Assembly (NCBI GenBank): GCA_028865335.1
Contig: JAGWKK010000002.1
Span: 1 to 43,235 of the forward strand
Origin: Patescibacteria group bacterium
GTDB lineage: Bacteria > Patescibacteriota > Minisyncoccia > UBA6257 > 02-FULL-45-10c
DNA: 43,235 nucleotides
Direction: 5' to 3'
The notes beneath the pieces are model-generated. The model was not told the DNA's origin and ran no database searches. It worked only from the letters and a program-made list of their open reading frames with translations. Every line of letters starts with the position of its first letter. Position 1 is the stretch's first letter. The position numbers and the translations under genes were made by a program. Below are positions 21,196 through 26,726 of this stretch, one piece after another.

Positions 21196-21966
21196 CTACC
21201 CCAAGTATCCCACCTGTTTCAGCCATTTCTCATTTTCCCATTCCCAGAGTCTCTTCGCGCCGAGGAAGGCCTGGAAGTCGTGCTTCCAGTCGGGGAATTC
21301 CTGCAGTTCAGTGACGCCGGTGAGTTCGGACCATTCGTGCTGATCCTGCGGACACATCGTCTTTTTCCCGCGGCGGATTTTGTTGCGGCCGCCTTTCGGG
21401 CGCATCGTCGCGCCACACTTGAGACAAGTGCGGACCTGATCGATCCGGAGAATCCAGCGGGTCTGCAGCTTGGGCAATTCGTCCAACAGAGCTTCTATAT
21501 ATGCGGCAGTCTGGAGGTTGTAGTCGCGATAGATCGCCTGAGAGGTCTTGATATCCAGGACGCCGAACTTGCCGTCCACCAGCGCCAGCGTATCGATCGT
21601 GCCCGCATACCGGTGTTCCGGATGGAAGATGCGCTTTTCCACGAACTTCGGGTCCACGCGGATTTCGCGGGTCTTCACGAAATCAAGAAATCCCTGCACG
21701 GCCGGTGCGATGGAAGCGGGGATATGCGGATGCTCGCCGACCATCAGTTTTTCCACGGTTTCGTGGATCAGCGTCCCTTCCCGCGCGGAATTTTCGGTGA
21801 TCGCTTTTGCGGCATTGTAACTCGCGGCCTCGCCATAGAACCGGTAGAGCGCCGGTTTGGATTTTATCTCGACTATTTTCGTGACGCGCGGATACCACTT
21901 GCCGTCGATGGCATATCCGGCCTGATCCTTGAATTCCTCGACATTGGAATAATCGAAAAGCGACAT
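21196..21966 (-). CDS. PD-(D/E)XK nuclease, RecB/lambda-exonuclease-like, with C-terminal zinc ribbon (256 aa)
   Basis: GTIDTLALVDGKFGVLDIKTS (D...DxK) followed by QTAAY (QxxxY); CLKCG...CPQDQH. ATG 21966 preferred; the 143-aa N-terminal extension of the listed ORF is rejected. Confidence 0.75.
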   Translation of the reverse strand: MSLFDYSNVEEFKDQAGYAIDGKWYPRVTKIVEIKSKPALYRFYGEAASYNAAKAITENSAREGTLIHETVEKLMVGEHPHIPASIAPAVQGFLDFVKTREIRVDPKFVEKRIFHPEHRYAGTIDTLALVDGKFGVLDIKTSQAIYRDYNLQTAAYIEALLDELPKLQTRWILRIDQVRTCLKCGATMRPKGGRNKIRRGKKTMCPQDQHEWSELTGVTELQEFPDWKHDFQAFLGAKRLWEWENEKWLKQVGYLG

Positions 21967-22492: not shown

Positions 22493-22966
22493 ATGAAGAA
22501 GATCGCACTCGGCGTGCTCGTACTCGGCCTTGCGGGATGCATGGCGGACGTCCGTCAGGACGCGCATACCTACATCCTCAAGGAAGTTCCGGTGGTGATG
22601 ACCGGCGCGATGGACGGAAATTCATCGGCCTCGGGAAATCAGCTTGGACCGACTGTCGAGATGGCTCTGCTGGACCAAAGCCGGCCCGGGACGAAGCAGC
22701 TGACCGATCCGGAGGAGGACGTCTCGCTGCTCGCCTGCGCTTCGACGGTGCGCATCGAGATCGACCCCGCGCTCAGCGAATGGTTCAGCAACTACCAGTA
22801 TTCCGAACTGTTCAGTGCCGAGCGGGTGACGACCGACGCCACCTGGCCCCGCCGCTATTTCGCATCGGGAGCCGTGGTCATCAAAGTGGATGACACTCCC
22901 CGTAAACGCGAGATCGAGGATGCGCTCCGCATTCTGCGCAACCACTCGTGTCCCGGAAAGAACTGA
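22493..22966 (+). CDS. lipoprotein (157 aa)
   Basis: Signal peptide with lipobox LGLAGC; TTGACG-17-TAGGGT promoter upstream. Confidence 0.75.
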   Translation: MKKIALGVLVLGLAGCMADVRQDAHTYILKEVPVVMTGAMDGNSSASGNQLGPTVEMALLDQSRPGTKQLTDPEEDVSLLACASTVRIEIDPALSEWFSNYQYSELFSAERVTTDATWPRRYFASGAVVIKVDDTPRKREIEDALRILRNHSCPGKN

Positions 22967-22988: not shown

Positions 22989-23061
22989 ATTTGGCTCAAC
23001 CACTGCGCCCGTATTTTATAGGTATTGACAAATAAGCACTCGATATGCTAGATTATATTTA

Positions 23062-23324
23062 ATCCACAGGCGCAGTAGTCCTTCTCGCAACGGTCTCGAG
23101 GCCGTTGGACCCCGAGAAGAGCGCGCTCGTAATACGTGGAGCGAACGGATCCCGTGGGTCCGTGGCCCTGCGACCATGCTCTAGCGGAGGGTCTCTGCTA
23201 AAGCTAAGGACAAAGGGCTCCTTTTACTCGGCTTAGGCAACCGGGTCGACTCTTCGGAGTCGTGATCGGCTTTGGAACTCAATCCTCAGCTGTCAGCGCC
23301 TTCCCCCAAAGCTTCGGCTGCGGG
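23062..23324 (+). ncRNA. candidate structured RNA (about 260 nt), or a terminator-containing leader of the protease gene
   Basis: GGTATTGACAAAT promoter (TTGACA 23025-23030, TAGATT 23049-23054). Nested helices CTTCTCG/CGAGAAG around CAACGG/CCGTTG. UUCG hairpin CGACTC/GAGTCG. Terminator 23293-23324. No ORF. Confidence 0.5.
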
Positions 23325-23411
23325 GGATTTTTTTATATCAGTTTTAGCTCTGGATTTCTCTCAATAAATACCGTACAGTGAAAATATCCTTGAAAATCCG
23401 AAAGAGGACGA

Positions 23412-24011
23412 ATGCACGTAATCGTCGTCGTTGGGAAACCGAGTAACGAAGATTCACGCAAGGATCGGTTTGAAATCGCTGCGACCAATACGATCCTTAA
23501 CCTCCGTATAGATTTCGATATGGCTCGGAAAGACGATCTTTCTTACGTCTGGGGACCTGCTTCGCGGGTACAGAAGCGCCTTGAAGCTATCTTCCTGGAG
23601 AAGCGCGACGAAGACATCTGCCTTTTCTATTTCGGCCATGGGGCTGAGTACGGATGGGCGATGCTAGGCGATCGACGCCCCGGCTCCGTCCTCGCGTACG
23701 AAGACCTCCGGCTGACGCTTGCGCAGCATTCCGGAAATCTTCTCTTTATCAACGCTCCGTGCTACGCCGGCGCCGCATCCGATGCGCTGGAGGGACATGG
23801 CGGAGCGCATTGTCTGATCGCTCTGGTCCCTCGCGATAAATGCGGCTATCCCGAAAACTTCATCCATTCCATATTCGGATCTTGGCGCGCTCGCCGCTTT
23901 TTCAATCCGCGAGATCCCTGTTTTGGGAATGTAGAAGACAATGCCCCTGTCGTCGAAGGCGATATCGAGTTGCAGCAGCTGATGTTCCCGAAAAAGGAGG
24001 CATTCGTATGA
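23412..24011 (+). CDS. minimal clan-CD (caspase/legumain-like) cysteine protease fold, paralog 1 (199 aa)
   Basis: ICLFYFGHGAEYG (His76) and LLFINAPCYAGA (Cys117) with 41-residue spacing, as in the clan-CD His-Cys dyad. Confidence 0.65.
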   Translation: MHVIVVVGKPSNEDSRKDRFEIAATNTILNLRIDFDMARKDDLSYVWGPASRVQKRLEAIFLEKRDEDICLFYFGHGAEYGWAMLGDRRPGSVLAYEDLRLTLAQHSGNLLFINAPCYAGAASDALEGHGGAHCLIALVPRDKCGYPENFIHSIFGSWRARRFFNPRDPCFGNVEDNAPVVEGDIELQQLMFPKKEAFV

Positions 24012-24232
24012 ACCGGAAAGAGCGCAAGAGCTACGTCGAGCTGACGCGATACCTGATTCTCATTGCTGCGACGGTCGCGTTCGCCGTAGCGACTTATCCG
24101 CTGCTCTATTATTCCGGTGCGCTGAAATTGATGAATGACATTTCAGTGGCGTTGACGATTTCGCTGCGCAACCTGATTGAACACCAGAATCCTACGATCA
24201 CCGTCCCGTATCCGAAGCAGCCGCGCCGGTAG
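24008..24232 (+). CDS. small membrane protein (74 aa), translationally coupled to the protease
   Basis: ATGA start/stop overlap with the upstream CDS; one clear TM (YLILIAATVAFAVATYPLLYY) and a second amphipathic segment. Confidence 0.55.
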   Translation: MNRKERKSYVELTRYLILIAATVAFAVATYPLLYYSGALKLMNDISVALTISLRNLIEHQNPTITVPYPKQPRR

Positions 24233-24242
24233 AGTATCATCC

Positions 24243-24305
24243 CCCCGCCATTCCAGGTGGCGGGGACCCGCCCTCGCACCTTTGATAAGGTAGTGAGGGT
24301 TTTTT
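24243..24305 (+). terminator. tandem hairpins / terminator
   Basis: CCCCGCCA-TTCCAGG-TGGCGGGG, then CCCTCGC...GTGAGGG followed by TTTTT. Confidence 0.6.
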
Positions 24306-24335
24306 AATTTCCCCGCCACTGGTACAATAAGAGAC

Positions 24336-25385
24336 ATGGACCTGACCACGATCGCCATTTTCATACTGATCCTTATCGGCTTCGCCGTACTGTACGCCGC
24401 GATCAAGAATCAACCGCAGCCGGAGACAAAAAAAGATGAACAGTCGCTTCTGATGCTCCAACAACAGCTGCAGGATCTGCGCCGTACCTTGGATACGCAG
24501 CTCGGCGCCTCCACGCGCTCCATGCAGTCGCAGTTCAGCGAGAGCGCGAAAATCATCCGCGATGTCACCGAACGCCTCACGAAACTGGATGAGACCAACC
24601 GCCAGGTGGTCAGCTTCGCCGACCAGCTTCAGAATCTGCAGGACATCCTGAAGAATCCGAAACAGCGCGGCATCCTCGGCGAATATTATCTGGAGGAGAT
24701 CCTGAAGAACGTCCTGCCGCCGGGCCGCTATCAGATGCAATATCCGTTCAAGAACGGCGACATCGTAGATGCGGTCATTTTCGTGCAGGACAAAGTGATT
24801 CCGATCGATTCCAAGTTCAGCCTGGAAAATTACAACCGCCTTCTGGAAGCGCACGAAGAATCCGAACAGGCCGATCTGGAAAAAGCATTCAAGCAGGATC
24901 TCAAAAACCGCATCGATGAGACGGCGAAATATGTGAAGCCGGAAGAGGGGACGATGGACTTCGCGTTCATGTTCATCCCGGCGGAAGCGATTTACTACGA
25001 TCTGCTCGTCAACAAGATTGGCGCGGCGAAAACGAACACGCGCGACCTGATCCAGTACGCATTCAAGGACAAACATGTCATCATTGTTTCGCCGACGTCG
25101 TTCCTGGCGTATCTGCAGACCGTTCTCCAGGGATTGAAGGCGTTGCAGATTGAAGAATCCGCAAAGGAGATCCGTAAGCGGGTGGAGATGCTCGGCAAAC
25201 ACCTCGGCAGTTACGAGGATTACATGAAAAAGCTCGGCACCCACCTCGGCACTTCCATCAATATGTACAACAGCGCCTATAAGGAGCTCGGGAAGATCGA
25301 CAAGGACGTTCTGAAGATCACCGACTCGGCCATCGGCATCGAACCGGAATTGCTGGAACGACCTGAACTGACGGAAGTGGAATAG
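24336..25385 (+). CDS. rmuC: DNA recombination protein RmuC
   Basis: N-terminal TM, long coiled coil, and a RmuC C-terminal nuclease-like core (GILGEYYLEEIL..., FMFIPAEAIYYDLL). Confidence 0.88.
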   Translation: MDLTTIAIFILILIGFAVLYAAIKNQPQPETKKDEQSLLMLQQQLQDLRRTLDTQLGASTRSMQSQFSESAKIIRDVTERLTKLDETNRQVVSFADQLQNLQDILKNPKQRGILGEYYLEEILKNVLPPGRYQMQYPFKNGDIVDAVIFVQDKVIPIDSKFSLENYNRLLEAHEESEQADLEKAFKQDLKNRIDETAKYVKPEEGTMDFAFMFIPAEAIYYDLLVNKIGAAKTNTRDLIQYAFKDKHVIIVSPTSFLAYLQTVLQGLKALQIEESAKEIRKRVEMLGKHLGSYEDYMKKLGTHLGTSINMYNSAYKELGKIDKDVLKITDSAIGIEPELLERPELTEVE

Positions 25386-25410: not shown

Positions 25411-25466
25411 TTGACCGGCGCCTTATTTTTATTTACAGTAGTATCAGTTCTCAAAAATGCGAGGTG

Positions 25467-26039
25467 ATGATGAGCGAGCTTGAAAAGCAATCCGGACCTC
25501 TGATGAGCAGTGAGATATACGGAATTCTCGAAGTCATCGGCAAGAAAATACAAGCGGGTGAATTCGACGGCCAACTCGGCGGAGGATCGCCCCACGACTG
25601 GCAGATCCGTATAAGCGGCACCAAGAAGATAAAGTTCTCTTTCTTCTCGTACGACCGGTCGAACAGCGCCCTCGTCTTTCCGGTGCTCATATGCGGGCCT
25701 CTGGTCCCGATGATCGGGATGCTGACCTATAGCATAGCGCTTTCCTTTCTCGCATTTGTTGTCGGCATGGCGATGATATGGCTCGTTATACACTGGCTGG
25801 GAAACATATTCGGGAAAGACAAGCGCTATATGACCGGACGACTCACTGTCGCCAATGAATCATTGGTGATGGAATCCCGGTGCGCCGTAGGGTCTGACGG
25901 GAGGGTTTGGACCGAAAGCGGATATGCCGATCTCGCGCAACTGCAGCAGATGGTGATCGAGCGGATCAAGATGATCCATTCCGGCAGAGGCAATCTGCCG
26001 AAGATGAAAAAGTACCTCAACGATTCAGAAGGAGCGTAA
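25467..26039 (+). CDS. hypothetical 2-TM membrane protein (about 190 aa)
   Basis: GAGGTG before ATG; central hydrophobic pair (LVFPVLICGPLVPMIGML..., FLAFVVGMAMIWLVIHWL). Confidence 0.6.
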   Translation: MMSELEKQSGPLMSSEIYGILEVIGKKIQAGEFDGQLGGGSPHDWQIRISGTKKIKFSFFSYDRSNSALVFPVLICGPLVPMIGMLTYSIALSFLAFVVGMAMIWLVIHWLGNIFGKDKRYMTGRLTVANESLVMESRCAVGSDGRVWTESGYADLAQLQQMVIERIKMIHSGRGNLPKMKKYLNDSEGA

Positions 26040-26051
26040 GCTCCTTTTTTG
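26031..26051 (+). terminator. intrinsic terminator (stop codon in the loop)
   Basis: GGAGC-GTAA-GCTCC then TTTTTT. Confidence 0.65.
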
Positions 26052-26066
26052 TTTTATACTGACCGT

Positions 26067-26726
26067 ATGGAAAAACATGACGAGCTTTACCGGAAAAAAT
26101 GGCGGAAATTCCAGCAGCGGGCGTGGCTGTTCCGGTTCATTCCGTTCGTGGATTTCGTATTCGCCGCGGGATCGCTCGCGACCGGTAACGTTCATGAAGC
26201 GTCCGACTTCGATGTGATTGTCGGCGCACGACAGGGGAGAATTTTCACTGTCCGCTTTTTCTGCTTTCTTGTTTTCAAGCCGCTTGGCCTCTGGGCGCGC
26301 CATCCCGATCACTCAAAAGATCGCATCTGCTTCAATCATTTCGTGACTCCGTACGGCTACCGCCTCCGTCCGCCGCATAACGCCTATTGGCAGAACTTGT
26401 ATGCGTCTTTGATTCCGGTCTACGGCAATCCGCGGATCATGCAGCGGTTCTGGCGCGCGAACCGGGGATGGATGAAGGGACCGAAACTCTATGAACCGAT
26501 GTCGGACAAACCGCTCGGCCGGAAATCATGGATTGCGAAACTGGGCGAGGCGATGCTTGCCGGCAGGTTTGGTACCTGGGTTGAGCTCAAGCTGAAAAAT
26601 CTGCAGTTGGAAACCATCGCTTCCGATCGGAATCATCAGGAAGAATACAAACCGCGGATCATCATCAGCGATGACGAATTGGAGTTCCATCCGCATACGA
26701 AACGAATTGAGGAATACAGCGCGTAG
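26067..26726 (+). CDS. nucleotidyltransferase-fold (Pol-beta superfamily-like) protein (219 aa)
   Basis: AAGSLATGNVHEASDFDVIV fits the GS-x(n)-DxD minimal NTase motif; ATG 26067 preferred over TTG 26049. Confidence 0.6.
   Translation: MEKHDELYRKKWRKFQQRAWLFRFIPFVDFVFAAGSLATGNVHEASDFDVIVGARQGRIFTVRFFCFLVFKPLGLWARHPDHSKDRICFNHFVTPYGYRLRPPHNAYWQNLYASLIPVYGNPRIMQRFWRANRGWMKGPKLYEPMSDKPLGRKSWIAKLGEAMLAGRFGTWVELKLKNLQLETIASDRNHQEEYKPRIIISDDELEFHPHTKRIEEYSA

Follow-up and report, generated by a model that had tools for sequence, protein, structure and literature searches.

Two overlapping genes at nt 23412-24232 of a 43,235-nt stretch of DNA from a Patescibacteria group bacterium (GenBank assembly GCA_028865335.1, contig JAGWKK010000002.1, positions 1 to 43,235 of the forward strand; hereafter the window) encode a predicted stand-alone clan-CD (caspase-fold) cysteine peptidase of 199 amino acids (aa) and a 74-aa membrane protein with a single transmembrane (TM) helix. 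The reading that we favor, with a probability of roughly 55%, is that the protease and its small bitopic partner form a two-subunit peptidase that is tethered to the membrane and faces the cytoplasm. The two-gene unit is made up as follows.

23412-24011, + strand: protease gene, ATG start, 199 aa, predicted stand-alone clan-CD (caspase-fold) cysteine peptidase
23404-23408, + strand: GAGGA, ribosome-binding site of the protease gene
24008-24232, + strand: partner gene, 74-aa membrane protein, N-terminus basic (MNRKERK...), one TM helix
23994-24000, + strand: AAGGAGG, Shine-Dalgarno sequence of the partner gene, 7 nt ahead of its ATG
24053-24109, + strand: TM helix of the partner, residues 16-34, Kyte-Doolittle 19-residue mean 2.04
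24243-24306, + strand: terminator of the two-gene unit, GC-rich hairpins at 24243-24265 and 24270-24300 followed by U6 (24301-24306)

In the protease, His76 (codon 23637-23639) lies in the segment ICLFYFGHG and Cys117 (codon 23760-23762) in LLFINAPCYAG, at a spacing of 41 residues. These are the two hallmark segments of clan CD to which the original prediction, made from the letters of the DNA, had pointed, and the map of open reading frames (ORFs) and their translation bore out this and all other sequence-level statements that it had made on both ORFs. An exhaustive HMMER search against 1.84 billion representative proteins (E ≤ 1e-3) gave 33 further matches, approximately 31 of which were true homologues, and the protease ORF is therefore taken to be a real gene. 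The homologues comprised 18 close relatives of ~200 aa (33-44% identity, E = 5e-12 to 7e-34) and 13 members of a distant subfamily (~190-290 aa, apart from a 360-aa homologue that has an extra N-terminal multi-TM domain), while P0020 and P0034 were spurious repeat proteins and were rejected. With the protease as single query, a word-indexed search returned the self-match only, and no close relative was found in Joint Genome Institute (JGI) metagenome contigs; a family-alignment profile recovered the distant subfamily only from the word-indexed database, and a 7-sequence alignment recovered 6 loci from the JGI contigs. All database members were unnamed or labelled 'hypothetical protein', no description of the family was found in the literature, and no Pfam, NCBIfam, PADLOC or PHROGs model matched the protease at threshold, in keeping with the two-gene module having been called apparently undescribed. 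To judge from the sequences recovered, the family appears to be unannotated, rare (~31 cluster representatives) and restricted to Patescibacteria.

Residues Y73, G75, H76, G77, G86, Y96, H106, N114 and C117 are invariant in the close family. All 19 close homologues have the His/Cys dyad, as do 31 of the 32 sequences aligned when the distant subfamily is included, and on this conservation the original prediction had made itself depend. The sole exception among the 32, P0032, has lost both residues. This 360-aa protein, found on a Logan contig, has GPG and ITHFAG at the dyad sites and a fused N-terminal domain with several hydrophobic, TM-like segments, and is likely a pseudo-protease embedded directly in the membrane.

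An AlphaFold2 (AF2) model of the protease built from the 32-sequence alignment had a predicted local distance difference test score (pLDDT) of 94.6 and a predicted template modelling score (pTM) of 0.91; the model from the single sequence (pLDDT 33) was of no use. The elements along the chain were beta1 (residues 2-7), alpha1, beta2 (43-47), alpha2, beta3 (69-74), alpha3, beta4 (110-114), alpha4, beta5 (133-137), alpha5 and beta6 (180-183), an order equivalent to beta1-beta6 and alpha1-alpha5 of caspases, with a small three-stranded sheet (76-78, 81-83 and 93-95) assigned by DSSP ahead of alpha3. His76 lies 2 residues past beta3 and Cys117 3 residues past beta4, that is, at the C-terminal end of beta3 and at the end of beta4, as described for His and Cys relative to the central sheet of caspases and other clan-CD enzymes (McLuskey and Mottram, PMC4357240). 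A Foldseek search of the PDB placed caspase-4, procaspase-1, caspase-11, the Raptor caspase-like domain, metacaspase 9, legumain and peptide asparaginyl ligases at the top (E down to 1.8e-6, probability 1.00, TM-scores 0.5-0.62), and a search of BFVD returned giant-virus caspase and metacaspase domains; the caspase/hemoglobinase fold that had been expected of such a model was thus recovered. A single ~200-aa domain was seen in the model and in Pfam searches, with no sensor or repeat domain, as had also been stated beforehand.

Matches below threshold pointed the same way. Those to PDB sequences all belonged to clan CD (gingipain R, Raptor, metacaspase-4, CHAT protein, GPI transamidase and PorU), and those to Pfam among the 32 members were to C25 in 16, C14 in 6, Raptor_N in 6 and C13 in 1. 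The window protease had no match to PF00656 (C14; gathering threshold 21.4 bits), the best scores in its relatives being 21.3 bits for P0026 and 20.4 bits for a second caspase-like protein of the window (paralogue B, described below), and it scored 10.6 bits (E = 0.32) against PF01364 (C25), below the 23-bit threshold, which the best member (E = 4e-4) also failed to reach. A cyclic nucleotide (cNMP)-like match to the EAL enzyme Bd1971, obtained with phmmer against PDB sequences, was spurious, and an hhalign comparison of the family profile with a human caspase-3 sequence (probability 0.75%, no meaningful alignment) was discarded. The protease is assigned to clan CD because structure matches, dyad positions and sub-threshold profile matches agree; it is predicted to be a peptidase-fold protein with an intact dyad, closest to C14 and outside every curated family, and in the model appears to be cut down to the bare six-stranded catalytic domain.

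The C14 caspases, metacaspases and orthocaspases have the same fold and dyad positions as the protease and include its best Foldseek matches (caspase-4, -1 and -11 and metacaspase 9), and the motifs Y-x-GHG and N/D-x-C-C-(H/Y)-A-G resemble what we take to be the metacaspase motifs YSGHG and DxCHSG, a likeness that served as a lead only. Unlike these enzymes, the 199-aa protease has no prodomain, p20/p10 linker or accessory domains and has a dedicated small membrane partner, and its family carries an invariant Asn 3 residues before the Cys, where metacaspases presumably have Asp 2 residues before it. The C25 gingipains and PorU gave the commonest weak Pfam match, and gingipain R was the best match among PDB sequences (E = 0.11), with the motif YTGHG...W aligned and the family His placed at position 211 of 1cvr_A, which we assume to be the catalytic His211 of gingipain R. 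However, all these scores were sub-threshold, gingipains are large, secreted, multidomain proteins, and the weak alignment paired the family Cys with Cys255 of gingipain R (by residue count) and not with Cys244, which we take to be the catalytic residue. The C80 domains of MARTX and large clostridial toxins are similar in having a ~200-aa caspase-fold core with His and Cys after the beta3 and beta4 equivalents (PMC4357240), but they sit inside giant secreted toxins as autoprocessing modules and are activated by inositol hexakisphosphate (InsP6), whereas the protease studied here is free-standing and predicted to be cytoplasmic; no C80 structure was among its top Foldseek matches.

Clan CD also holds transamidases, ligases and inactive scaffolds, and GPI transamidase, PorU, the VyPAL2 ligase and Raptor were among the matches. 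A non-proteolytic caspase-fold scaffold or pseudo-enzyme, or a transpeptidase or ligase that acts on membrane or envelope proteins in the manner of GPI8, PorU or peptide asparaginyl ligases, would fit these matches as well as P0032, with its missing dyad and its attached multi-TM domain. Such a role is nevertheless quite improbable, since the dyad and its flanking Gly residues are invariant in the close family, which argues against a pseudo-enzyme, and no signal peptide is present, so that sorting of envelope proteins on the outside is unlikely. Ligase and protease chemistry would look alike in the sequence of such a protein.

The partner gene begins within the end of the protease gene. Its ATG (24008-24010) and the protease TGA (24009-24011) form an ATGA overlap at 24008-24011, the coupling to a 74-aa hydrophobic protein that the original prediction had described. 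When 12 independent close-family loci were compared, a homologous small TM ORF was paired with the protease in 7. It overlaps the protease stop codon in five (window, L002, L017, L097 and L100/101), by ATGA in the window, L002, L097 and L100 and by 11 nt in L017; Shine-Dalgarno-like sequences precede most of these overlapping ORFs, with AAGGAGG for that of the window and GGAGG for that of L017. In L004-6/L095-96 a gap of 130 nt separates the protease from the small TM ORF downstream, and in L001 the two are joined in frame, the small TM sequence following on from the C-terminus of the protease (P0013, 256 aa). Overlap, conserved adjacency and a Rosetta-stone fusion, the operational marks of a translationally coupled two-subunit unit, were thus all observed. 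The partners share the pattern E-x-L, TM helix, YP(L/F)L-x-L-x-G and L-x3-S-x2-C(S/A)K(A/V)IF-x3-G, although those of relatives have only 55-61 aa, with the TM helix beginning near residue 10. Leave-one-out profiles searched against 17,051 ORFs recovered the partners of L017 (E = 1e-8) and L002 (4e-10) and the tail of L001 (4e-14), and the partner of L100, absent from the profile training, scored 46.9 bits. The partner ORF of the window is taken to be a real gene because a profile built without it recovered it at E = 4e-5 among these 17,051 ORFs. Only the window and L017 peptides were recovered in a database search with the partner-family profile, and the partner had no Pfam or PADLOC match.

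In L003 and L094 the partner gene is missing and rmuC begins ~50 nt after the protease. There the protease itself ends in ...NLKIW(G/E)I(I/M)KKMI(K/M)KLF(N/S)Q, a helix that is strongly amphipathic (hydrophobic moment, muH, of 0.59-0.67, attained by only 2-3% of shuffles) and is possibly an in-plane membrane-targeting sequence replacing the TM subunit. The proteases concerned lie at 174-803 of L003 and 452-1099 of L094 and end in the amphipathic helix KIWGIIKKMIKKLF, muH 0.67.

The catalytic domain would thus be placed on the membrane by three routes: through a TM subunit encoded by its own gene, through a TM tail fused to the protease, or through an amphipathic tail. In the arrangement proposed, the protease would be cytoplasmic because it lacks a signal peptide, and the co-translated 74-aa protein would serve as its membrane-anchoring subunit. 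The N-terminus of the partner would lie inside the cell, beside the protease C-terminus, and the catalytic domain would face the cytoplasm, as the missing signal peptide and the junction of protease C-terminus and partner N-terminus in the fusion suggest. The protease would then act at the cytoplasmic face of the membrane, presumably by proteolysis.

Several observations weigh against a membrane anchor. The fusion fits equally well a substrate or effector peptide that is freed by autoprocessing. Where loci are shared, protease identity is 33-44%, as against 56-83% for RmuC, 67-81% for the Cas4-like protein, 80-85% for GroES and 50-65% for the nucleotidyltransferase (NTase)-like protein, and such fast evolution of the protease is also typical of conflict genes; the protease is the fastest-evolving gene of these loci, with an active site that is nonetheless fixed. 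L008 and L098 carry only unproven TM ORFs, L009 has an unrelated overlapping ORF, and the distant subfamily (L007, L011 and L012) has no homologous peptide, multi-TM proteins following the protease in 2 of those loci. The 56-aa TM ORF of L008 was rejected as a partner homologue after the leave-one-out profile did not recover it, and L009 and L010 were uninformative for pairing. The original prediction had expected the small ORF to be linked to the protease in relatives; this stood for 7 of the 12 loci and failed for L003, L094 and the distant subfamily.

The unit lies in the following neighborhood.

21196-21960, - strand: Cas4-like PD-(D/E)XK nuclease gene, identified by family matches; divergent upstream neighbor of the protease in relatives
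22493-22966, + strand: lipoprotein gene, 157 aa, lipobox LGLAGC
23025-23337, + strand: upstream RNA unit with promoter, ~265-nt structured RNA and intrinsic terminator
23025-23054, + strand: sigma70-like promoter of this unit, TTGACA, 18 nt, TG-TAGATT, 10/12 matches, TG-extended
23302-23327, + strand: intrinsic terminator of the upstream RNA, followed by a U-run
24336-25385, + strand: rmuC, 349 aa, N-terminal TM helix, Pfam RmuC 5.7e-57
25464-26039, + strand: 191-aa ORF with a hydrophobic stretch and weak Pfam Yip1/Adipogenin matches over residues ~79-123
26049-26726, + strand: NTase-like gene, 225 aa
27539-27889, + strand: small PD-(D/E)XK-like gene, 116 aa
27974-28753, + strand: paralogue B, 259 aa, YSGHG and ADCCH motifs and CxC...CxC, directly upstream of groES/groEL

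The gene order in the window is thus Cas4-like gene, lipoprotein gene, structured RNA, protease, partner, rmuC, 191-aa TM protein, NTase-like gene, 116-aa gene, second caspase-like paralogue, groES and groEL. L017 and L100 have the same backbone, and L017 also has the second paralogue. The Cas4-like gene is always divergently upstream of the protease in L001, L009, L017 and L094; its product, 67-81% identical in these four loci, has a C-terminal CxxC...C cluster, and neither a CRISPR array nor further cas genes were seen in the vicinity. Relatives have no homologue of the 191-aa ORF that separates rmuC from the NTase-like gene; in its place L017 carries an unrelated ORF, also of 191 aa, so that the content of this position varies while the rest of the backbone is conserved.

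In all close-family loci with enough sequence (window, L001-L006, L008, L017, L094, L095, L097, L098 and L100/101), rmuC follows the protease at a distance of 0-2 genes, while genes beyond the Cas4-like gene upstream vary between loci. As RmuC, a membrane-anchored coiled-coil nuclease, has an N-terminal TM helix, both proteins would be located at the membrane, and the protease could be tied to RmuC, for example by processing or releasing it with the peptide as adaptor. A scan of GTDB species representatives for RmuC (60-83% identical to that of the window) gave 80 loci, nearly all labelled Patescibacteria and a minority with another or no phylum label. The NTase-like gene was downstream in 14 of them, groES was nearby in 7, and the 116-aa PD-(D/E)XK-like gene recurred downstream of rmuC in 3, but the protease, together with the Cas4-like gene and paralogue B, was present in L017 alone, the survey covering 4 kb around rmuC. 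A general functional pair of RmuC and protease was rejected on this count of 1 in 80, and a tie to RmuC has little probability also in view of the intrinsic terminator between the pair and rmuC in the window, the genes that intervene in L001 and L008, and the location of the distant subfamily, which adjoins pyrimidine-synthesis and other housekeeping genes with no rmuC nearby. Because the backbone recurs in the 80 RmuC loci and the protease in only one, rmuC, the NTase-like gene, the nuclease-like gene and groESL are considered an old backbone and the caspase-like genes lineage-specific additions. The constant adjacency to rmuC is most simply explained by one insertion into the conserved backbone followed by vertical descent. 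The pair, inserted between the Cas4-like nuclease gene and rmuC, is best seen as an accessory unit that evolves fast and is restricted to one narrow clade of Patescibacteria (Parcubacteria/Paceibacteria-like).

The terminator in front of rmuC folds at -38.3 kcal/mol (z = -5.0), and with that of the upstream RNA the protease-partner unit is flanked by terminators on both sides. The structured RNA directly upstream (23062-23324), to which the original prediction had drawn attention, once with its end misprinted as 24324, is present with its terminator and folds with a z-score of -4.6; a role in the module did not stand. Rfam searches, both at gathering thresholds and with the cut-off relaxed to E ≤ 10, gave no match for it, and no transfer-messenger RNA (tmRNA) was predicted in the window by ARAGORN, so that its identity with a known RNA family was rejected. 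Both the RNA and the lipoprotein gene are absent from every syntenic relative (for the RNA, L001, L009, L017, L094 and L100), where the Cas4-like gene faces the protease gene, so that the RNA does not belong to the module. The 157-aa lipoprotein had no homologue in any fetched relative or in the family library, and the two look like a genome-specific insertion between the Cas4-like and protease genes. No promoter was recognized in the 77 nt between the RNA terminator and the protease ATG, so that in this genome read-through may drive expression of the pair; the RNA would be either an independent small RNA or a read-through leader.

Paralogue B was matched by the family hidden Markov model at E = 1.7e-27 and, at 20.4 bits, falls just short of the Peptidase_C14 cut-off of 21.4; its two CxC pairs suggest a Zn site. 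The same paralogue arrangement is found at 7231-8052 of L017. Tandem paralogues of the distant subfamily occur in L011 (three, 560-2701) and L012 (two, 557-1890), the L012 pair having overlapping stop and start codons and being followed by a 125-aa multi-TM protein, an arrangement that hints at hetero-oligomeric caspase-like assemblies.

A caspase-like protease beside a pore-former is an established defense design. Bacterial gasdermins are full-length pore-formers, the Runella protein being cleaved after Leu247 with loss of its last 21 residues, and their usual companions are proteases, in some cases with repeat or NACHT domains (10.1101/2021.06.07.447441). The present locus is similar to the gasdermin operons of Johnson et al. 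in that a clan-CD protease gene adjoins a gene for a membrane-active protein, and the original prediction had seen in it the logic of abortive infection, while pointing out that the partner was much too small to be a gasdermin. The latter was borne out: with 74 aa here, 55-61 aa in relatives and one TM helix, the partner would not be a gasdermin-fold pore-former with a C-terminal inhibitory peptide by size, TM content or Pfam and PADLOC searches, and the peptides of relatives carry no cleavable inhibitory tail. Unlike gasdermin-associated proteases, the protease has no TPR, LRR, WD40 or NACHT sensor, and neither a sensor or repeat domain nor a defense island was found at its locus.

A two-gene suicide module, in which a triggered protease cleaves or releases the peptide, which then oligomerizes and permeabilizes the membrane, would nevertheless account for several features. 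The small membrane peptide is tightly and repeatedly paired with the protease and once fused to it; the distribution is patchy and lineage-restricted (1 of 80 RmuC loci of species representatives); the protease evolves much faster than the flanking genes; and paralogues have expanded, with three in tandem in L011 and a second copy in the window. The genomic context lends no support to such a role, and we regard it as unlikely. PADLOC (PADLOC-DB v2) gave no family at E ≤ 1 for protease or peptide, and tblastn of phage and plasmid collections and PHROGs gave no homologues of the pair, by which a phage or plasmid origin was also rejected. The neighbors were housekeeping or backbone genes in every locus (Cas4-like, RmuC, NTase-like, GroES/EL, L27 and pyrE/pyrF), and no locus was a defense island or mobile element. 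In the peptides of relatives the TM helix begins at about residue 10, so that no inhibitory pro-segment like the ~20-aa tail of bacterial gasdermins is present; L003 and L094 keep an intact protease without a TM peptide, and the distant subfamily has no homologous peptide. The abortive-infection logic was thus not upheld. The more specific proposal of the smallest known self-contained protease-effector suicide or immunity module, with the caspase domain gating a ~60-aa membrane-disrupting peptide and, in this genome, control by a read-through leader RNA, is less likely again. If a suicide module were the true function, which the present evidence disfavors, it would extend caspase-controlled membrane attack to an effector far simpler than gasdermin, and it would be native to ultra-small Patescibacteria, the defense repertoire of which is largely unknown.

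The membrane-tethered peptidase favored here represents a new and very small variant, at the level of a family, of a clan that is well known; its small membrane subunit is unusual, but it is not a categorically new system. With 199 aa, the protease is among the shortest complete caspase-type domains and is useful for defining the minimal catalytic unit of clan CD. The partner looks obligatory, and its occurrence as a separate gene or fused tail, or that of an amphipathic tail in its stead, suggests a membrane-tethered architecture that our searches linked to no described clan-CD enzyme. The protease is a candidate for regulated proteolysis in tiny-genome organisms in which almost no proteases have been characterized, and the family is of moderate interest for protease evolution and for the biology of Patescibacteria.

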